Below are positions 5,466-22,129 of a stretch of DNA of 36,915 nucleotides, one piece after another. The translations under genes and the position numbers were made by a program. The notes below the pieces were generated by a model. The model made no database searches. It was not told the DNA's origin and saw nothing but the letters and a program-made list of their open reading frames with translations. This DNA comes from a virus: UHGV virus genome UHGV-0071814; one strand, 5' to 3'. Position 1 is the stretch's first letter; each line of letters starts with the position of its first letter.

Positions 5466-6140
5466 TTAAAACAATGATCCAAGCCCACCGATAATACCGC
5501 CACCAATAGCGCCAACAGCTGTACCTATTCCAGGCACCACAGAGCCAATCATCGCCCCTGATGCAGCACCGCTCATGGCACCTCCCAAGGCTGATTGCAG
5601 TCCTGATGGTCGGTTAGCATTAGCCGCAGATGCTGCCGCCTGCTGTTGATACAATTGGCTGACGTTGTTAGCGTAGTTCTGTCCGGCATTTGCCTGACCT
5701 GTAAGAGCACCAAGGCCGATATTTGCCAGATTGTTGTAGTTGTTCATCTGACCTGACAGCCAGTTTTGACCGAGTGTAGGTGCGATTGCTGCTAACTGGT
5801 TTCCTGTTGCTGTAGAGCCTAATCCACCAGTTGCCTCTGCTGCTGCCAGACTCTGATAGCGCGCCTGCCCTGCAAGGTCTTTATACTGCTGAGAGTTGTA
5901 ATACTGGTTAAGCGCCTTACCTTGCCCATGAAGAGAGGAAAGATTTTGCAACTCTGATACGTACTGCTGAGCGAGTGGCGTAAACGGTGCAAGGTTCTGC
6001 ATGTTCGTTTGCCACATTTCACGCTGCAGTTCGATGCCCTTCTCAGTGGCGCGTGCCTGGGCTTTTGAACCGCCATCACCGCCACCTTTGCAGTAAACAG
6101 TTTTGCTGAGGTGCTTATTGGCAATCTGGAAAATTAACAT
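5466..6140 (-). CDS. DNA ejection protein (P22 gp7-like)
   Basis: 224 aa, Gly/Ala/Gln-rich C-terminus, synteny. Confidence 0.6.
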   Translation of the reverse strand: MLIFQIANKHLSKTVYCKGGGDGGSKAQARATEKGIELQREMWQTNMQNLAPFTPLAQQYVSELQNLSSLHGQGKALNQYYNSQQYKDLAGQARYQSLAAAEATGGLGSTATGNQLAAIAPTLGQNWLSGQMNNYNNLANIGLGALTGQANAGQNYANNVSQLYQQQAAASAANANRPSGLQSALGGAMSGAASGAMIGSVVPGIGTAVGAIGGGIIGGLGSLF

Positions 6141-6597
6141 TCTTTAGCTCCTCGTATTTTGAGCGCGGTAACTGATAAATCGTGATGCCTACAGGCTTTC
6201 CATTGCTGGTATAAGCATCATCAAGGTGACCAACACGGGTAGCGCCAAGCAAACGGATAATTGACCGTCCGTATTTCGTGGTGTCAGGAACCATAGTGAT
6301 GCTGTTAAGGAATGGTGAGTTTTCGAGAAGCCATTTGCAGAATAATCGATGCCCTTGCAGTGCATATTCGCCACGGAATCCGGGGTCGTACACCGCATGG
6401 CATTCAACAACGCTATGCCAGAAGTTACGCACTTCATGCACTCCGACCAGCATCAGTCCTTCGTAGATGCCGAGGTATACCGCATCAGGCTTGATGTAGT
6501 ATTTGTCTCCACTGTCTACGATATTTCCCGTGTTTGCCGGGTTGTTGAGGAATTCTGCAAGCTTCACCGGATTATCGATGAGCTTTATTTCCATCAC
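6115..6597 (-). CDS. gp14-like virion protein
   Basis: 160-aa ORF between tail needle and ejection genes; assignment by position. Confidence 0.5.
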
Positions 6598-7442
6598 TGC
6601 TCCGCAATGATTTTGATGGTTGTGGCAGTAAACGCCGCCCCATTTGACTGAATGGTTAACGTACTGCCATTTGTGGCAAGAAAGCCGTCTTTATCCACGC
6701 TGAAGAACGTAGCTAACAGGATGTTGTCGGTTGTTGTCGCCGCATTACGACTGCTGACCAACGTGTCAGGAACAGAGCCGGAAAAGGTTAGCTGCATTGA
6801 CCTGTTGGCGGTTCCGCTGGGCCACGTCCCGACGATCGACAGCTTGAAGAACAAGGTTTTGTTCTCGTTGAACACAACCATCTTGTTGTTAACGGTGTCG
6901 AAGAATGGTGCCAACGAGCCTGATGACGGCGTGAGCGTTTTCAGCAGGCTAACAAGGTTGGTCGGCGCTGTCGGGATGGTTACAGATACGCCAGAGTAAA
7001 CAACCTCTGACTTCTTGCGAGTAGTGGCATACTCCAGGGCATCGATGCGCGTTTCATGGTCTGAAACCTGCGACTCCAGCGACTGAACTCTGGTATCAAG
7101 AGACGCAATATCGCTTTCATTCTGAGCGATTCTCGTTTCATGTTCCTGAAGAGTTGATTCTGCCTGGCTGATTCGCTCCTCATGATTAACAAGCGTTGCT
7201 TCCGCAGCAGAAATTCGCTGCTCATGGTCAGCGAGAATCACATCCTGCTCATCGTTCCTGACTTGTGCGTCATAAGCGCCCTGTCCGGCCTCGTTGGCCT
7301 TGTTAGCCACGTTACCAACATCAGTGTCCTGTGCGATAACGTAAAGCAGATACGACTGCGAGAAGATATTGCGTGGAAGGACTGATGTATCAAGCCGCGT
7401 AGCTTGGATGATTACCGGCACATTGAGATTCGAATCCGCCAT
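6594..7442 (-). CDS. Tail needle (P22 gp26-like) with extended C-terminal domain (Sf6-type knob)
   Basis: [43 protein letters not shown]... matches gp26 N-terminus as recalled; heptad coiled coil; 282 aa versus 233 in P22. Confidence 0.85.
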
Positions 7443-13997: not shown

Positions 13998-15413
13998 TCA
14001 ACCTACACCACAAGGAATTGAGTAACTGGAATAGTCGGGTTGCGCAGCCGACTCCGGGCAATGCATACACATCATCAGCGCATCAGCCAGGTTAGGAGAT
14101 GGGATACCGAGCTTCTGCTTCATTTCGACCTTAGTCATAAGCTCCAGCTTCCCGTTATTATTGAATTTGCGCTGAATCTGCGTCAGTTCTGCAAACAGCT
14201 TCTCCAGCATCTTCTCGCCTATCGCTTCTTTGTCGAAGCTCAGCATGTCGTCGGGGTCTGCATACTCACCGTGGACAACCGCCCGATATGTCAGATACAG
14301 CCTGTCAGCCAGCGCGTAATAGAATTGCGCTCGCTTATTGCGGAACACATCACCAATAGTGCGAACGTTGTCGCCCTGTACGACTTCATCAGCCCATGCT
14401 CCGGCCTGATACGGCGCATCTTCATCGAATGGCGATTCACTGCCCTTGAACATCGTGGCGGTGATTTTCTTACCGGAGAATGCTTCCGTTGTCTGTCTGC
14501 GTAGCCCCGCACCGACGCCATCACCATCCCACAGGTAATGGTCAGCGCTGTCTTCAATCGCCAGCGAAGTAGCCCAGTCAGCACCCTCGTTGATGTCCAT
14601 CAGCAGACCTTCGGCAATGCGCTTAACCACCGAACCGTGACGCGATGCGTAACCTTTAGCATCTGGCCCTGTATCTGACGGGTCATGCGCAGAAACAACC
14701 GCACCTTTCGCTTTCCATCCGAGTTTCTTGTGCGCATCGGTTGCGGCTTCAAGCCATTCACGTTTGATGATTGCCATATCACTTGCGCTTACCGGCTCAC
14801 CAAGCCAGATGTGACGATACAGTGTCGGATTTCTGCGTTTGCACTCTTCCATCTCCAGACGGAGAACTTCAGGAAAGTGCGGGTTGTCGGTGTAGTTCAC
14901 CGTCAGCAGACAAATATCATCGGGAGGGTTTACTACGAATCGCTGATAGGTATCGTCGAGGATGTTTTTCGGGTTGAAGCTCACCCATATTTCGGAAAAT
15001 GGCTTGCGGATGGTTGGTATCAGGATATCCCATGATTCCTTCGTTACCGCTTCCGCTTCCTCCACCCAGCAGATATCAATGCCTTCGAGCGATTTAATCT
15101 TCGTCGGGTTGTTTTTGATGCCGTAGAACATGAACTCAGCATTCGTTCCGAGATGACGAATCATTGAACGCTGAATTTCAAACTCAGCCGAATACCCTTC
15201 CCGCTCTATGGTGTCTTCAAGCAACCGGATTACCGAATCGCTAATACTGTTTTGCAGTTCACGAGCGCAGAGAATACGCACCGGCTGCCGACGCGCCGCT
15301 TCAACAAGCAGCCTCGAGATTGCCCATGACTTACCGCTACCTCGACCGCCTTTGGCGACTTTATAGCGATGCGCCTCAATGAACGGTTCAAAGATAGGAT
15401 TAATCGAGGTCAT
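13998..15413 (-). CDS. Terminase large subunit
   Basis: 471 aa; Walker A KGGRGSGKS near N-terminus; start overlaps TerS stop. Confidence 0.9.
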   Translation of the reverse strand: MTSINPIFEPFIEAHRYKVAKGGRGSGKSWAISRLLVEAARRQPVRILCARELQNSISDSVIRLLEDTIEREGYSAEFEIQRSMIRHLGTNAEFMFYGIKNNPTKIKSLEGIDICWVEEAEAVTKESWDILIPTIRKPFSEIWVSFNPKNILDDTYQRFVVNPPDDICLLTVNYTDNPHFPEVLRLEMEECKRRNPTLYRHIWLGEPVSASDMAIIKREWLEAATDAHKKLGWKAKGAVVSAHDPSDTGPDAKGYASRHGSVVKRIAEGLLMDINEGADWATSLAIEDSADHYLWDGDGVGAGLRRQTTEAFSGKKITATMFKGSESPFDEDAPYQAGAWADEVVQGDNVRTIGDVFRNKRAQFYYALADRLYLTYRAVVHGEYADPDDMLSFDKEAIGEKMLEKLFAELTQIQRKFNNNGKLELMTKVEMKQKLGIPSPNLADALMMCMHCPESAAQPDYSSYSIPCGVG

Positions 15414-15850
15414 TTTCCGAATAGAGTGCTCATCGGTGATGTTTCAATCTGGATTGCGCCGCCGTCTTTGCCTGTTAGCTCGTGATCAACCTTATCGCGC
15501 CATTTATCCTTCTGTCGGTTCTTAAGCCAGAAGATGGCGGCGGTTGTATCAGGCGGGTAATACTTCTCAAGCGGAGTTTCGACAATTCTGTTTTCAATAA
15601 CACGAATATCGATGTCTGGAGCCACGAAGCCCATAGCGCGTTGATAAAGACGATCACTAACTTCTGCATCAGCGACGGCCTTACCCTTTTTTATGGACTC
15701 CGAAAACTCAGGATAATCAAGCTTCCACTTGTTAATAGTTGACTCACTGACCTCGAAGAAATCAGCAAGCTCTGCATCGGTGTAGCCCAGCAAGCACAGT
15801 TTGCGTGCCTGTTCGGCATACGCCTCTTGATACTTTGTTGGGCGCGCCAT
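15410..15850 (-). CDS. Terminase small subunit (Sf6 gp1-like)
   Basis: 146 aa; N-terminal HTH-like region; C-terminus ...GKDGGAIQIETSPMSTLFGK as recalled for Sf6 gp1. Confidence 0.75.
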   Translation of the reverse strand: MARPTKYQEAYAEQARKLCLLGYTDAELADFFEVSESTINKWKLDYPEFSESIKKGKAVADAEVSDRLYQRAMGFVAPDIDIRVIENRIVETPLEKYYPPDTTAAIFWLKNRQKDKWRDKVDHELTGKDGGAIQIETSPMSTLFGK

Positions 15851-15852
15851 GT

Positions 15853-16095
15853 TTATGCTCCGGTAGTGAACAGGTCTAACGCTTCCTTCGATTTACGTAC
15901 CGCTTCGATAGTGCGGGTCGTGATATCTGAATTAGCGCCGCCTGACTGGAAGTGAATTTTGAATAGCTCAAGCTTCAGCTCGTCAGTGCCGATGAATTGA
16001 AATGCTTCTTCTGCGGCTGCGTTCTGGTTCATGACCAGCTTGTAAATCTCTAACTGGAATTTCTGTTCTTCAGTCATGGGAATAATCTCTGCCAT
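15853..16095 (-). CDS. Hypothetical protein
   Basis: 80-aa ORF with GGAG upstream, adjacent to TerS. Confidence 0.45.
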   Translation of the reverse strand: MAEIIPMTEEQKFQLEIYKLVMNQNAAAEEAFQFIGTDELKLELFKIHFQSGGANSDITTRTIEAVRKSKEALDLFTTGA

Positions 16096-16748: not shown

Positions 16749-17234
16749 TTATTTCAGTTCGTTACCAGGCATTTCTTTTAGCTCTTTCAAATGACAACGA
16801 TTGAGACTAAACCACTCCCCGTGCGACCTATAGTTGTAATATTTTTGGTGCAATTTGGTTTCAAGCTCTCTATCGGCCGGAATCTTTGCAATTAGATTTA
16901 GCTTCCCACCACTCATGCGAGATATCTCTGAAATCCGTTTATTAACCCTGCGACTAAACCCTATTTTTGTTAGCCCACTATCTTCAGCATGCAGAACGTA
17001 CACATATGATTTTTGCGAAGCACTGGGTGCGACTTTGTTGTAATTAATCATGTCAAACATGAAGCCTTGCTTTAGCAAAGTTTCAAAAAAGATAGAATTA
17101 ACACACCCATTCCTTCTCAGCTCTGCACTTAGCTTGTCAATTTCCTCTATGATGTCGCCAGACCCCTTTCCACTTATAAGAAAATCTTGGTACATGCGAC
17201 CAATTCTTGAGGTAATTTCAACAAAGTTATTCAT
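16749..17234 (-). CDS. T5orf172 (GIY-YIG-like) domain protein; AT-rich moron
   Basis: C-terminal YVYVLHAEDSGLTKIGFS...LHQKYYNYRSHGEWFSLN fits the T5orf172 pattern; markedly AT-rich versus flanking genes. Confidence 0.6.
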   Translation of the reverse strand: MNNFVEITSRIGRMYQDFLISGKGSGDIIEEIDKLSAELRRNGCVNSIFFETLLKQGFMFDMINYNKVAPSASQKSYVYVLHAEDSGLTKIGFSRRVNKRISEISRMSGGKLNLIAKIPADRELETKLHQKYYNYRSHGEWFSLNRCHLKELKEMPGNELK

Positions 17235-17378
17235 AGCGTTTACCTTTTAGAAAGATGAGCCTGTTCGCACAGAAAAGCCGCCCCGAGATGGTCGCCACCA
17301 TATACGGCAGTTCTCAGGCTCAGCTTTCTGAAAGACTCGGGATTGTTACGCGCTGCGATGCGCGGTTTACTGCAGATG

Positions 17379-17404
17379 TAAAAAAGCCCCGCAAATGCGA
17401 GGCT
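17379..17404 (-). terminator. Intrinsic terminator-like hairpin (CCTCGCATTTGCGGGG + TTTTTT) between Rz and the T5orf172 gene
   Basis: Read on minus strand. Confidence 0.45.
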
Positions 17405-17577
17405 AAATCCTGGTGTTTGTGATGACTGGCTCTTATCTCAACGCAGCCCCTTACCGCGCGCCAGATGCTCAATATCAAGCATCAGCAATGAGATGTTTAA
17501 TCTGGATTCACTCCAGAAGTGTTCACCACCCTTCCTACAGAGCCAGATGTGAAGGATGATGAGTAAAATTATCGCTA

Positions 17578-18015
17578 TCATCGAAGGCATTGCGTCCTGA
17601 TGTACTCCTGCAGGTAGTTAACCTGCGCGGTTATCCTGTCGATTCCACTTCGGAGACGGTAATAATTGAGTTCAGCATCTGCTGTAAGTCTTGGGCTTTC
17701 TCCATCGCCCATGCTGCTGGCTCCGGTCGTTGACTTTGCACAGGTGGCGGCGACTTGCAGGCGCTTACGACCAGCAGAAACATCAGCACGGAGACTTTCG
17801 ATAGTCGCGTTAGCATCAGCAAGCTCCTTTGTGTATCTGGCGTCGAGTTCTGCTACATCACGTTGACGCTTCTGCATGTCAGCGATGATGGATGTGGCTT
17901 TATCGCGCTGGTCTTTGTAGGCGATGGCGTTATCACGGTAATGATTAACAGCCCATGACAGGCAGACGATGACGCAGATAACCAGAGCGGAGATAATCGC
18001 GGTTACTCTGCTCAT
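17578..18015 (-). CDS. Rz: Rz i-spanin
   Basis: [31 protein letters not shown]...; N-terminal TM helix, lambda Rz-like. Confidence 0.85.
17631..17822 (-). CDS. Rz1: Rz1 o-spanin lipoprotein, embedded in the +1 frame of Rz
   Basis: Signal peptide, lipobox VVSAC, proline-rich [13 protein letters not shown]; fully nested in Rz. Confidence 0.75.
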
Positions 18016-18488: not shown

Positions 18489-18795
18489 CTTCTACTCCGG
18501 CTTTTTTAGCAGCGAAGCGTTTGATAAGCGAACCAATCGAGTCAGTACCGATGTAGCCGATGAACACGCTCGTTATATAAGCGAGATTGCTACTTAGTCC
18601 GGCGAAGTCGAGAAGGTCACGAATGAACCAGGCGATAATGGCGCACATCGTTGCGTCGATTACTATTTTTGTAAACGCACCGCCATTATATCTGCCGCGA
18701 AGGTACGCCATTGCAAACGCAAGGATTGCTCCGATGCCTTGTTCCTTTGCCGCGAGAATGGCGGCTAACAGGTCATGTTTTTCTGGCATCTTCAT
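18472..18795 (-). CDS. S: Holin, lambda S-type (dual-start Met1-Lys2-Met3)
   Basis: 107 aa [22 protein letters not shown]...; three TM segments. Confidence 0.9.
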
Positions 18796-19037
18796 GTCTT
18801 ACCCCCAATAAGGGGATTTGCTCTATTTAATTAGGAATAAGGTCGATTACTGATAGAACAAATCCAGGCTACTGTGTTTAGTAATCAGATTTGTTCGTGA
18901 CCGATATGCACGGGCAAAACGGCAGGAGGTTGTTAGCGCAGCCTCCTGCCACCCGCTTTCACGAAGATCATGTGTAGAAGGCCGCAGCGTAACTATCACT
19001 GATGAGTTCAGGATAGCCAGTGGCTACGGCTCAGTTA

Positions 19038-19113
19038 TGGTGCTGGTTAACGGACTTGAACCGCTACCCATTCGCTTACAAGGCGACTGCTCTACCATTG
19101 GAGCTAAACCAGC
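19038..19113 (-). tRNA. tRNA, probably Thr (anticodon UGU)
   Basis: Manual fold: 7-bp acceptor stem, D arm GCTC/GAGC, anticodon loop CUUGUAA, T arm with GGTTCAAGTCC, 3' CCA. Confidence 0.6.
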
Positions 19114-19118
19114 ATATT

Positions 19119-19193
19119 TGGCGGGACAGCGTGGACTCGAACCACGATAAGAAGGTTAACAGCCTTCCGTAATGACCTTTATACGACTGACCC
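19119..19193 (-). tRNA. tRNA, probably Asn (anticodon GUU); one T-T mismatch in acceptor stem
   Basis: Manual fold: anticodon stem GAAGG/CCTTC, loop CUGUUAA, T arm GGTTCGAGTCC, 3' CCA. Confidence 0.55.
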
Positions 19194-19196
19194 AAA

Positions 19197-19216
19197 TAAA
19201 AAATCCCGAAACCGTT
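19197..19216 (-). terminator. tR'-like intrinsic terminator (end of lambda 6S-like leader)
   Basis: Minus strand AACGGTTTCGGGATTTTTT; flanking sequence matches my recollection of lambda tR'. Confidence 0.6.
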
Positions 19217-19386
19217 GTGCAGGCTCTAACTATTACCTGCGAACTGTTTCGGGATTGCATTTTGCAGACCTCTCAGCCTGCTATGGTTGGAGTTCCAGAC
19301 GATACGTCGAAGTGACCAACTAGGCGGAATCGGTAGTAAGCGCCGCCTCTTTTCATCTCACTACCACAACGAGCGAATTAACCCAT

Positions 19387-19878
19387 CTATCCCATACTGG
19401 AGAATTCACCATGATATTTTATCCTGGCATTTTCCATTGCCTTTCTCGCCTCCTCGATATCGTCAAAACACCCTACATGAATCCTTTTACCATTGACCCT
19501 AATTCTTCCAACCCACTTGTTTGCAGCAGAATTAAAAGTCACCCCCTTCACACCAGATGAATTGTTTTTCCTCATCTTGCTGTTCCATGAGTTTTGAGTG
19601 TTAGTAACAACACGAAGATTGGCTATCCGGTTATCAGATCTATCACCATTAATATGGTCAATCACATCGGTTGGCCAATCATTGTAAACCATCAGCCATG
19701 CAATTCTATGGACATATAGCCGCATTCCATAAAGTTTTACCTGCAGATATCCATTTGTTTCATAGCCAACAACAGCGCCATAGATAAATCTAGAGGACCG
19801 AGGTGGATTCTTCCATGTAAGAATTCCAGTATCTGGATTGTAATTAAAAAGTCTCAATGCATCTTCACGTTTTAACAT
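19387..19878 (-). CDS. HNH homing endonuclease with C-terminal AP2-like domain
   Basis: 163 aa; ...VHRIAWLMVYNDWPTDVIDHINGDRSDNRIANLRVV...SGVKGVTFNSAANKWVGRI... Confidence 0.7.
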   Translation of the reverse strand: MLKREDALRLFNYNPDTGILTWKNPPRSSRFIYGAVVGYETNGYLQVKLYGMRLYVHRIAWLMVYNDWPTDVIDHINGDRSDNRIANLRVVTNTQNSWNSKMRKNNSSGVKGVTFNSAANKWVGRIRVNGKRIHVGCFDDIEEARKAMENARIKYHGEFSSMG

Positions 19879-20078
19879 AGGCGAACCACATAGATATTAG
19901 AGCCTGCTGACATAGAAATATCACCACGAGAGAAGTCGCCAAAAGCGATATTTCTCAGGCTCTATTCCTATGTGCTCTCGAGTTTATGATGCGCATGTCA
20001 GTGCGCTTAGAACTTAAAGATGAGGTGGGTAAAAGCTGAAAGAATGTGAACGGATATAAATCTGCCATTCTTGGGTCA

Positions 20079-20107
20079 AATTTACCCAACTTTATTCAAA
20101 AAGTCAA
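20079..20107 (-). promoter_or_regulatory. Late promoter PR' (-35 TTGACT, 17-bp spacer, -10 TAAATT) with Q-utilisation region
   Basis: Minus strand TTGACTTTTTGAATAAAGTTGGGTAAATT just downstream of Q; closely resembles lambda PR' as recalled. Confidence 0.6.
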
Positions 20108-20149
20108 TATCATGCCGTTAATATGTTGCCATCCGTGGCAATCATGCTG

Positions 20150-20773
20150 CTAACGTGTGACCGCATTCAAAATGTTGTCTGCGATTGACTCTTCTTTGTG
20201 GCATTGCACCACCAGAGCGTCATACAGCGGCTTAACAGTGCGTGACCAGGTGGGTTGGGTAAGGTTTGGGATTAGCATCGTTACAGCGCGATATGCGGCG
20301 CTTGCTGGCATCCTGGAATAGCCGACGCCTTTGCATCTTCCGCACTCTTTCTCGACAACTCTCCCCCACTGCTCTGTTTTGGCAATATCAACGGCCCGGC
20401 CAGTACCGTGGCAATCTCTGCATCTTGCGCCCGGTGTCGCGGCACTACGGCAATAATCCGCATAAGCGAATGTTGCGAGCACTTGCAGCACCTTTGCCTT
20501 AGTATTTCCTTCGAGCTTTGCCACACCACGGTATTTCCCCGATACCTTGTGTGCAAATTGCATCAGATAGTTGATAGCCTTTTGTTTGTCGTTCTGGCTG
20601 AGTTCATGCTTACCGCAGAATGCAGACATTCCGAATCCGGCTTGTGATTGCGCCATCCCCATAGCAGCCATCACATCAGTACCGGAAAGAGAGTCAGAAG
20701 CCGTAGCCCGTGGTGAGTCGCTCATCATCGGGCTTTTTGGCGAATGAAATTTAGCTACGCTTTCGAGTCTCAT
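20150..20773 (-). CDS. Q: Late antiterminator Q (lambda-type)
   Basis: 207 aa MRLESVAKFHSPKSPMMSDSPRATASDSLSGTDV..., near-identical to lambda Q as recalled; zinc-binding Cys cluster. Confidence 0.9.
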   Translation of the reverse strand: MRLESVAKFHSPKSPMMSDSPRATASDSLSGTDVMAAMGMAQSQAGFGMSAFCGKHELSQNDKQKAINYLMQFAHKVSGKYRGVAKLEGNTKAKVLQVLATFAYADYCRSAATPGARCRDCHGTGRAVDIAKTEQWGRVVEKECGRCKGVGYSRMPASAAYRAVTMLIPNLTQPTWSRTVKPLYDALVVQCHKEESIADNILNAVTR

Positions 20774-20958
20774 GGTCTTCCCCTCTTGCCCTGTTTGACC
20801 ATCAGGACGCCGTTAACTATTACGTGACGCTCACCTTTGCTGTCTCGGTTGTACTTGAGCACTGTTCCTCTTGCACAGGAAAGCATCCTCGCCACTTCGG
20901 TCTGATTGCCTCGTGTCTGGATAAGAAGCTCTGGTATCGTTTGAATTGTGGCGTTCAT
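20770..20958 (-). CDS. ninH: NinH-like protein
   Basis: 62 aa with GNQTEVARMLSCARGTV HTH-like motif, position between rusA and Q. Confidence 0.65.
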   Translation of the reverse strand: MNATIQTIPELLIQTRGNQTEVARMLSCARGTVLKYNRDSKGERHVIVNGVLMVKQGKRGRP

Positions 20959-21317
20959 ACGTTCTCCAGTTCGGTGATTTTTATTCCAAGCCTTCCGCCT
21001 GGTACTTTCACGCCACGAATTACGCGAATGTCATCGAATTGCTCGTCGTCTTCCGCAAATCCGGCGTGGATAAGGGAGTCGAGTAAACCTTTCAGGATGT
21101 TGTCGAGGTCGCGGCGGCGGGAGTCTGGAACGTCTGCGATGACTTTGATGCGGAGTCGTGATTTGGTGAAAATGTCTAACTTGAGTTGGCGGATGATTTG
21201 CTGAACGTCTTTTCGGTATTTCTGGCCTTTATCGCTGATGTAGTATTGGCTTCCCCGTCTTCGCCAGTAGGTGTTCAGCGACGGTGGGTACGGAAGTGTG
21301 AATCTGTATTCTGCCAT
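20955..21317 (-). CDS. rusA: Holliday junction resolvase RusA
   Basis: 120 aa MAEYRFTLPYPPSLNTYWRRRG...; RusA family. Confidence 0.85.
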   Translation of the reverse strand: MAEYRFTLPYPPSLNTYWRRRGSQYYISDKGQKYRKDVQQIIRQLKLDIFTKSRLRIKVIADVPDSRRRDLDNILKGLLDSLIHAGFAEDDEQFDDIRVIRGVKVPGGRLGIKITELENV

Positions 21318-21842
21318 TTATCCTCTCCCATGATTATGGTGATAGCCCAATCGTGATTCCGCCAATTTTCTGGCATTAACGGCTAGAGATATGTCATCGT
21401 ATAATCCAAGAAATATCTTTTTATTATCACTGTTTATATATGCGCCCCACTTTTTATTCTTCTTATAGTAGGCAACACCAATTACTCCAGAGCGATTATT
21501 AATAGGCTTTTTTCTGTTCCTTGAGTTCTGTTTATCATCTACAACGCGCAAATTGCATATTCTGTTATCGCTTTTAATTCCATTTATGTGGTCAATTTCC
21601 CCATCAGGTTCACTTCCATAAAAGGATATCCATGCGATTCTATGAGCTCGACAAACTTTTTTATTTACAGATATACGAACGTATCCTTTTTCATCTATAG
21701 AACCAGCAATCTTACCGGCATATGTTGAATTCCAGCACTCTCTTACACTTTCTCTTCTCTTGTATATAAACAAACCTGTTTCGCTATTATATTCATACAA
21801 TTCATTGATTTCTTTTTGTGTTGGATATCTTTTACCGTTCAT
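21318..21842 (-). CDS. HNH homing endonuclease with AP2-like domain (paralog of 19387-19878), AT-rich
   Basis: 174 aa; ...RAHRIAWISFYGSEPDGEIDHINGIKSDNRICNLRVV...SGVIGVAYYKKNKKWGAYI... Confidence 0.7.
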   Translation of the reverse strand: MNGKRYPTQKEINELYEYNSETGLFIYKRRESVRECWNSTYAGKIAGSIDEKGYVRISVNKKVCRAHRIAWISFYGSEPDGEIDHINGIKSDNRICNLRVVDDKQNSRNRKKPINNRSGVIGVAYYKKNKKWGAYINSDNKKIFLGLYDDISLAVNARKLAESRLGYHHNHGRG

Positions 21843-22129
21843 GGCTTAATCTTCCCCTCCTTCAGCAGTATCGCCTGCGTCCTGATCACGCCTTCGAGGT
21901 GGTAAAGTCTGGCGTCTTTGTTGTCGAGATTATAGGTGCGTCGGTCGATTTCATCGTGACACGCGCTACAAGCCCATGCGCCGATCAGGTCGTCAGGCTT
22001 CATTCCCGTTCCGCAAATTCCAGCCATCCGGTAATGTGCCAGAACTGTAGTTTCAGGATTGCCATTGCATACGCCGTAAATACGTACCTGGCATTCTCTG
22101 CCGCGTGCTTCTTTGCGTAGATTAGCCAT
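21839..22129 (-). CDS. Cys-rich phage protein (NinX/DUF1364-like)
   Basis: 96 aa with CQV...C...C...CSAC spacing; family assignment from memory. Confidence 0.45.
   Translation of the reverse strand: MANLRKEARGRECQVRIYGVCNGNPETTVLAHYRMAGICGTGMKPDDLIGAWACSACHDEIDRRTYNLDNKDARLYHLEGVIRTQAILLKEGKIKP

Follow-up and report, generated by a model that had tools for sequence, protein, structure and literature searches.

An HNH-AP2 endonuclease gene and a conserved pseudoknotted leader in the PR'-tR' interval of a lambda-type phage genome

The late promoter PR' is constitutive in lambda-type lysogens, where an abundant short RNA is made from it (PMC7547250). In the lambda 6S unit, which runs from PR' to the terminator tR', and in the StxS small RNA of Shiga toxin (Stx) phages, a promoter and a terminator are placed after the antiterminator gene Q, and the transcript is made in the lysogen and read through only with Q (PMC7547250). 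Here we describe a locus with the same promoter, terminator and position in the UHGV virus genome UHGV-0071814 (the window, that is, the whole analysed stretch of 36,915 nt). Its late leader holds an extra block of 682 bp with a gene for an HNH-AP2 endonuclease, so that the 194-nt RNA of lambda would here become an RNA of ~876 nt enclosing a protein gene and a structured leader.

Three other kinds of system resemble this locus. Free-standing HNH homing genes of phages (T4 mob genes, genes of the I-HmuI type and HNH-AP2 genes) likewise combine HNH_3 and AP2 domains in a small gene between conserved genes or sites, and they are patchy among near-identical genomes, with several copies per genome and with decayed copies. 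By contrast, the gene described here lies inside a short constitutive late transcript of a temperate phage and behind a pseudoknotted leader. Translational occlusion is found at several phage nuclease and DNA-modification genes, namely the hairpins of T4 I-TevI and mobE and the com/mom system of Mu, where an RNA helix sequesters the ribosome-binding region of a gene whose product may be toxic. The leader in our locus shares this principle, but it is far larger and more conserved, contains loop-bulge and loop-linker pseudoknots and is shared by unrelated cargo genes. The nearest functional analogue is the IsrK-orf45-anrP region of Gifsy-1, where a Q-like gene, a promoter and a short terminated RNA are followed by a silent structured leader and an accessory gene. 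Read-through there gives a translationally silent, highly structured leader before an antirepressor-like gene (PMC4825925). Two relatives of our locus, L018 and L019, share this order (Q, promoter, terminator, leader, cargo). However, our leader has no Rfam isrK match, no detectable homology and no orf45-like upstream open reading frame (ORF), and its fold has two pseudoknots. We searched the literature for HNH genes located in the PR' leader or between Q and S, for the leader sequence, and for a leader pseudoknot of Rha, KilA or antirepressor genes; nothing relevant was returned. To the extent of these searches, neither such a position within the 6S unit nor the link to a pseudoknotted leader has been described. 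The nuclease itself is ordinary; the interest lies in its position and, above all, in a conserved, uncatalogued leader RNA common to many lambdoid accessory genes.

We compared the window with lambda (J02459) and HK446 (JQ086372) in a three-way MAFFT alignment. On the minus strand, which also carries the tRNA pair, the second cassette and the second HNH gene described below, a lambda-type Q gene of 207 aa (20150-20773; Pfam Antiterm PF03589, 1.2e-57) is directly followed by PR' at 20079-20107, identified by a consensus scan (TTGACT, 17-bp spacer, TAAATT). An earlier note on this DNA, made from the letters alone, had recognized a likeness to lambda PR' here and a likeness to the lambda 6S/tR' segment at 19195-19387, and the alignment bore out both. 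The promoter differs from that of lambda at 2 of 29 positions, with hexamers and spacer sequence as in lambda, and is identical to the HK446 promoter annotated as 'similar to coliphage lambda PR''. Between GATGGGTTAATTCG (19387) and the U-run of tR' (19196) the alignment shows 3 mismatches in ~191 nt by our count, and tR' (hairpin and U-run, 19253-19196) folds with -26.9 kcal/mol (z -5.5), followed by U6. The ~680 bp in between, which the note had held to lack a lambda counterpart, appeared as a single gap of 682 columns in both lambda and HK446, located between ...TTTGACCCAA and (C)GATGGGTTAATTCG; the rest was near-identical. The extra block spans 19389-20070, with edges that are ambiguous by ~5 nt (a GAATGG/GATGG repeat). 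Its junctions read CAA|GAATGG CAG and GGGATAG|ATGG GTTAATT; both end in ATGG, as had been remarked, and they were the same in 10 of the 10 loci aligned.

The extra block is clean, in agreement with the proposal that an HNH gene had been inserted into the PR' leader, but it does not consist of the gene alone. Three elements follow one another: an alternative initial transcribed region (20010-20072), defined by alignment to lambda and HK446; a first copy of a double-pseudoknot leader RNA (19879-20006); and an intact gene of 163 aa with HNH_3 and AP2 domains (19387-19878). The stop codon of this gene is fused to, or overlaps, the lambda-type 6S sequence at about +4, from where the 6S body with tR' continues (19196-19387). 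The complete order is Q, PR', ~200 nt of non-coding sequence, HNH-AP2, 6S body/tR', tRNA-Asn, tRNA-Thr, S, R and Rz. A 44-aa ORF at 19955-20089 was discarded as a gene, as it has no Pfam match and its frame is not kept in relatives.

Lambda Q binds between the -35 and -10 elements of PR'. By homology with lambda, we take +1 to be the A at 20072 and assume that AAGAAT at +1 to +6 (20072-20067) is the -10-like hexamer that induces pausing. The signals still found beside the promoter are the -35/-10 interval, TTGACC just 5' of +1 and this -10-like hexamer (AACGAT in lambda). Departure from the lambda sequence begins at +3/+4 and is complete from +9, where the window reads CAGAUUUAUAUCCG and lambda reads GUUAAUUCG; the lambda sequence at the +16/+17 pause position is absent here. 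It is found 682 bp downstream, as part of the segment from lambda +4/+9 onward with the remaining 6S. The suggestion of the note that the Q-dependent pause region has been displaced thus applies to this segment, but not to the promoter-proximal signals, which are retained. Two different initial transcribed regions stand in tandem, AAGAAUGGCAG... at the promoter and a promoter-less GAUGGGUUAAUUCG after the HNH gene, 682 nt downstream. Two prophages that lack the HNH gene also have the alternative initial sequence beside lambda-type Q, and homologous initial regions follow the late promoters of the relatives L014-L019.

A site scan together with folding found no terminator-like sites between PR' and the HNH gene, and the 5' hairpin of the initial region (20072-20040) is weak (-6.2 kcal/mol) and not terminator-like. 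The Q-dependent intrinsic terminator tR' is intact and lies 682 bp farther from PR' than in lambda. Because no terminator-like site intervenes, transcription of the HNH gene from PR' can fairly be inferred. Since PR' is constitutive in lambda-type lysogens, it should yield an RNA of ~876 nt (194 + 682) without any need for Q. This RNA would carry the endonuclease message and end at tR' in the absence of Q; even a dormant prophage probably produces it. To this extent the idea that the endonuclease is transcribed in lysogens stands; for the protein it need not hold, given the structured leader.

The leader is conserved from GCGCACUGACAUGCGC to the start codon. Between the window and L014 it is ~95% identical while synonymous divergence (dS) in the gene is 0.88, and the non-coding upstream sequence is better conserved than the protein. 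RNAalifold and pair counts define a structure of ~128 nt. It begins with a small hairpin, P1 (20006-19991), whose loop is CUGACA (20001-19996). A long hairpin of three segments follows: P2a (19974-19967 with 19894-19887, the ribosome-binding region), P2c (19963-19956 with 19906-19899) and P2d (19955-19945 with 19924-19914). Its apical loop (19944-19925) holds UGGCGAC and the 3' strand of the second pseudoknot (19932-19927). The first pseudoknot, PK1, pairs a 6-7-nt bulge in the 3' arm (UGUCAG, 19912-19907) with the P1 loop, and the second, PK2, pairs the linker hexamer CGAGAG (19980-19975) with the apical loop. The long imperfect inverted repeat seen earlier in this leader (TAGAGCCTG / CAGGCTCTA) is real: it is helix P2c of the long hairpin, which is conserved in every relative examined. 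In an RNAalifold run on six sequences, CGAG was paired with the region before the start codon; we replaced this pairing by the CGAGAG/CUCUCG pseudoknot, which shows compensatory changes.

Across 29 distinct sequences, 98.8% of cells were paired, against at most 50% when the partners were slid, and 8 pairs showed compensatory changes. The covariation score exceeded that of 500 of 500 shuffles, and the leader fold has a z of -3.6. Among all copies found, PK1 occurs in five complementary variants (CUGACA/UGUCAG, CUGACG/CGUCAG, UCUCAC/GUGAGA, UCGCA/UGCGA and UUCUCG/CGAGAA) and PK2 in at least 8, with UGGCGAC of the apical loop and AGCCUGAGAA remaining invariant. The covariance-model alignment misaligns P1 in diverged copies, and complementarity was checked sequence by sequence. 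Rfam 15, searched at E <= 1 on either strand and including isrK, C4, ribozymes and riboswitches, gave no leader-family match in any copy searched: only tRNAs were matched in 18700-20300, and nothing in 16900-17700 or in the loci L019, L026, L036 and L038. The Shine-Dalgarno sequence of the cargo gene lies in the 3' strand of P2a; it is AGGA in most copies, those of Xenorhabdus among them, and a poor GUGG in the E. coli HNH copies. Judging from sequence and predicted fold, the structured leader probably limits translation of the HNH gene, so that the RNA may be expressed in lysogens while the protein need not be.

By every sequence criterion the protein looks like an ordinary member of the HNH-AP2 homing endonuclease family. 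It matches HNH_3 (5.6e-17; 61.5 bits against a Pfam cut-off of 24.8), AP2 (3.1e-08; 34.2 bits against 33.3) and PHROG 99 (1.1e-75). The catalytic and metal-binding residues are in place, with H57, D74, H75, N77, D82, N83, R84, N87, R89 and N99 invariant in 45 homologues. The ratio of nonsynonymous to synonymous substitution rates (dN/dS) was 0.083 against L014 and 0.048 against L015; such purifying selection (~0.05-0.1) suggests that the protein is in use. The AlphaFold2 model has a mean confidence score (pLDDT) of 94.4 and a C-terminal AP2/ERF fold, which superimposes on the AP2 domains of AtERF1 and TEM1 at 1.3 A over 51 residues. Foldseek against the PDB recognized the AP2 half and found no close match to the whole protein, and the PDB sequence search gave marginal matches only, with the solved I-HmuI at E 0.62. 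More than 3800 phage records carry a homologue at <60% identity, many of them in two or more copies, a typical trait of homing endonuclease genes. The terminase adjacency of packaging-associated HNH proteins of the HK97 gp74 type was not seen at this gene, which lies between Q and the holin gene.

The block itself is rare. It was found in none of 50,697 GenBank phage records and in 16 of 5426 complete E. coli genomes, at 98.6-99.4% identity and with the ORF intact in all 16; E. coli P393-F10, AR_0058 and LH85-a are examples of carriers. About 13% of the E. coli genomes gave any match, and these 16 were the only ones with the block. The uninterrupted junction of the lambda/HK446 type was found in 397 E. 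coli genomes and is thus 25 times commoner than the block. Presence (16) and absence (397) alternate at a fixed site, with identical junctions, among otherwise near-identical genomes. Such a sporadic distribution is in keeping with a mobile endonuclease gene.

The flanks of the block are mosaic. The Q proteins of all block-carrying loci are 98-99.5% identical to that of the window. In the 10 loci inspected closely, the nin regions vary (NinG-NinH-phosphatase versus DUF1364-RusA-NinH, KilAC being present or absent), tR' is followed by sequences of at least three types, and the regions beyond Rz differ as well. For the flank haplotypes we used the upstream 130-bp table only, owing to an offset and indels in the downstream table. 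A hand count gave 15 haplotype rows among 23 block-carrying loci, one row shared with HK446 and one with lambda, with variable sites up to a few bases from the block edge. These mosaic flanks are compatible with homing, though not specific to it.

Several copies appear decayed. Among the IMG/VR contigs, L042 and L050 have a ~320-bp deletion inside the HNH ORF, and L046 and L061 have a 1-nt indel; these copies could be pseudogenes or, in the case of the indel, sequencing errors. Two further loci, L003 (3001-3165; RMDEC465) and L004 (2990-3092; FDAARGOS_943), retain lambda-type Q, PR' and the alternative initial region, whereas of the leader only the 5' half is left, joined at AGAGCCTG to the 3' half of tR'. 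Their sequences suggest that they are deletion derivatives, apparently having lost the HNH gene between the two TAGAGCCTG repeats of an arrangement like that of the window. We rejected them as the empty site, given that the leader, elsewhere always complete, is present only as its 5' half and that the hybrid terminator is weak (-11.7 kcal/mol, z 0.33). In FDAARGOS_943, moreover, the initial region has gained a GC-rich hairpin and the terminator has lost 7 nt.

The closest relatives share this location. Among 5.8 billion proteins, those nearest to the HNH protein were 85, 74, 65, 62 (Xenorhabdus bovienii) and 56% identical, the first two being the proteins of L014 and L015. All five are encoded directly downstream of an Antiterm-family Q and, where the contig reaches, upstream of lysis genes; a 48% relative has an unrelated gene context. 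The neighbouring Q proteins measure 207, 254, 273 and 276 aa. This HNH-AP2 lineage lives in the interval from Q to the lysis genes, and ~190 nt upstream of the ORF accompany it down to 56% protein identity. The junction of the HNH stop codon with GATG and a 6S-like sequence is also present in the L014 lineage, at a dS of ~0.88, which argues against a one-off accident. The sequence 3' of the HNH gene in L015, L016, L018 and L019 is unrelated to lambda 6S.

These relatives fall into two designs. In L018 and L019, the two most distant of the Q-adjacent relatives, Q is followed by a promoter, an initial region, an intrinsic terminator, the leader and the HNH gene, and L019 has a second terminator after the HNH gene with a TTTTTCATATCTGC tail resembling that after lambda tR'. 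There the HNH gene, lying behind a terminator, should depend on Q. The window, L014, L015 and L016 have a terminator after the HNH gene and none before the leader; what aligns with the terminator tail in the window is just a degenerate T-rich remnant. Both designs place the lysis genes behind a terminator, and the difference should be whether the endonuclease message is made without Q.

The leader is not specific to the HNH gene. The window itself has a second cassette after Rz, at 17226-17404, with an intrinsic terminator (17404-17372; -15.1 kcal/mol and U6), a diverged second copy of the leader (17388-17226; covariance model R1, 64 bits, E ~1e-13 to 1e-16) and a GIY-YIG-like MUG113/T5orf172 gene of 161 aa (16749-17234; Pfam PF13455, 4.2e-13; PF10544, 1.1e-09). 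Complementary pairs are kept in this copy though its sequence differs from the first (loop UCGCA with bulge UGCGA; CCCGAG with CUCGGG). With the covariance model, similar copies were detected ahead of KilA-N in HK446 and ahead of Rha in other E. coli prophages. An exact-pattern scan placed the leader in 19 Xenorhabdus loci and one Morganella locus. In Xenorhabdus it comes directly after an intrinsic terminator and is followed by P22-Ant-like, Rha, HNH-AP2 or unknown ORFs; in the Xenorhabdus loci annotated (L028 and L040) it lies between endolysin and Rz. In one of these, L040 (Xenorhabdus bakwenae prophage, 5781-6680), a gene resembling KwaB of the Kiwa defence system stands shortly after Rz, downstream of the leader-Rha cassette.

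A looser pattern matched at least 120 IMG/VR contigs, from which 118 matches were sampled (loci L067-L184). Among the IMG/VR matches listed, 109 of 118 passed a crude test for an upstream T-run, and the cargo was Rha-like in 75, KilA-N in 19, T5orf172 in 13, another Rha or antirepressor protein in 6, HNH in 1 and unknown in 1. BLASTN found the family in 157 GenBank phage records, for example epsilon34 (41064-41249), Sf101, SPN3UB and HK106, with 73 Stx2a-converting phages; no RNA feature was annotated at the leader among the GenBank matches listed. The hosts are Escherichia, Salmonella, Shigella, Klebsiella, Enterobacter, Hafnia, Erwinia and Xenorhabdus, and the gene behind the leader is Rha, KilA-N, T5orf172 or hypothetical.

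Starting from what was observed (the anatomy of the block, its conservation, its patchy distribution, the mosaic flanks, the decay products and the RNA structure), we lean, on balance, towards reading the locus as a three-part nuclease cassette of homing type, placed in the PR'-tR' leader of a lambda-Q-type prophage. Its transcription from PR' would be independent of Q, and the gate would lie at the level of translation. A widespread late-operon nuclease cassette would have been captured between PR' and tR'. The ~876-nt RNA made in the lysogen would carry the endonuclease message and stop at tR' without Q, and Q would still load at PR', because the promoter-proximal signals are kept. The leader would hold the ribosome-binding region in a helix locked by the two pseudoknots, leaving translation low or conditional. 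The nuclease, once made, would act as a free-standing homing enzyme: it would cut block-less related phages near the site, and repair would copy the block in. The cut would be expected at or near CAACGATGG|GTTAATTCG, in block-less DNA only. A lysogen would then be a standing donor of the block and an excluder of incoming relatives.

Five points weigh against this reading. A weak, AU-rich 5' hairpin in the initial region, with a U-rich stretch behind it, could perhaps act as a partial terminator. Given the poor ribosome-binding sequence of the E. coli copies, little protein may be produced. Mosaic flanks are also a product of ordinary lambdoid recombination. The cassette can evidently move or swap its cargo without a nuclease, since the same leader precedes non-nuclease genes (Rha, KilA-N and Ant). 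Finally, the ancestral logic looks Q-dependent rather than constitutive, because a terminator precedes the leader in L018, L019 and 109 of the 118 other cassettes sampled.

Some of these points belong to the main rival explanation, which we consider possible though doubtful. The cassette of terminator, leader and gene would be passive cargo, spread through ordinary recombination, whether homologous or illegitimate, at conserved sequences in the leader and the terminator, and the HNH protein would serve the prophage, for example in superinfection exclusion, or serve nothing, with no homing involved. The presence of unrelated genes behind the same leader, both in the 118 IMG/VR matches listed and in Xenorhabdus (Ant, Rha and HNH), speaks for this explanation, as does the terminator tail TTTTTTAyATCTGC, which recurs at cassette edges and after lambda tR'. 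PADLOC gave only a weak generic match to 'HEase' (homing endonuclease) and no membership in a defence system. Nevertheless, the HNH_3 and AP2 architecture with a multi-copy, patchy distribution is the pattern of a homing endonuclease, the breakpoints of recombination are only a few bp away from the block edge, and the protein is under purifying selection. Moreover, the same prophage has a second HNH_3 gene of 174 aa (21318-21842; Pfam), ~40% identical to the first by tblastn, precisely between two nin genes that are otherwise adjacent. It lies exactly between YbcO/DUF1364 (21839-22129) and RusA (20955-21317), with start and stop codons overlapping or abutting. These two genes are directly adjacent in L006-L013, and L057 has a 40% match at the same offset. 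The second gene looks like a separate free-standing endonuclease insertion of the same kind in the nin region.

The breadth of the leader family also allows a tentative reading that puts the RNA at the centre. The leader may belong to a new class of double-pseudoknot riboregulators, or be a processing element, that gates potentially toxic late-operon genes; the present locus would then be a cassette that has lost its upstream terminator and has been captured by the constitutive PR'-tR' unit. As part of the same reading, the leader would possibly gate, in lambdoid phages and Stx phages among them, the genes of HNH and GIY-YIG-like nucleases and those of Rha, KilA-N and Ant. If it is true, a dormant prophage continuously makes the message of a homing or exclusion nuclease and translates it on a specific signal only.

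Two further explanations fare worse. It is very unlikely that the leader with the block is ancestral and gave rise to the lambda/HK446 leader through a deletion spanning the GAATGG and GATGG repeats. Deletion derivatives do arise (L003/L004 and L042/L050), and the junction of the HNH stop codon with GATG is old, being common to L014 at a dS of 0.88. However, the tandem AAGAAUGGCAG... and promoter-less GAUGGGUUAAUUCG are a signature of fusion or insertion, and L015, L016, L018 and L019 show no relation to lambda 6S downstream of the HNH gene. The tandem initial regions, together with the greater abundance of the uninterrupted form (397 versus 16), make a deletion origin of the lambda leader unlikely. 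Very unlikely, too, is a silent relic, transcribed in a lengthened 6S-like RNA but never translated and with any function in the RNA alone: the ribosome-binding sequence of the E. coli copies is indeed weak and held in P2a, and 4 of ~19 IMG/VR copies are disrupted, but a dN/dS of 0.05-0.1, catalytic residues invariant across lineages and an ORF intact in 16 of 16 complete genomes speak against it.

The PR'-6S-tR' unit of lambda is a textbook element, and this variant offers a test of how much change in the initial transcribed region is compatible with Q loading; possible uses of a constitutive 'by-product' transcript would come to light as well. If the nuclease of the homing-type cassette is made in lysogens, prophages could be standing donors for homing into superinfecting relatives and could exclude them. 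The occurrence of the leader before Rha, KilA-N, T5orf172, Ant and HNH genes, Stx2a-converting phages included, makes the regulation of these widespread yet poorly understood genes directly testable.

Downstream of tR', the window encodes tRNA-Asn(GTT) at 19193-19119 and tRNA-Thr(TGT) at 19113-19038, as found by ARAGORN, the Rfam tRNA model and the alignment to HK446. A tRNA pair right after tR' and before the holin gene is likewise present in HK446, mEp506, Kapi1 and Sf6. In some block-carrying prophages the spacer between tR' and S is of the lambda type or of a third type instead of the tRNA pair. The lysis cassette and three further ORFs lie between the HNH gene and the next ORFs (15410-16095). 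In one block-carrying locus, L013 (strain HCP4S3_I4, 894-2107), an IS3-family transposase gene lies between RusA and NinH.

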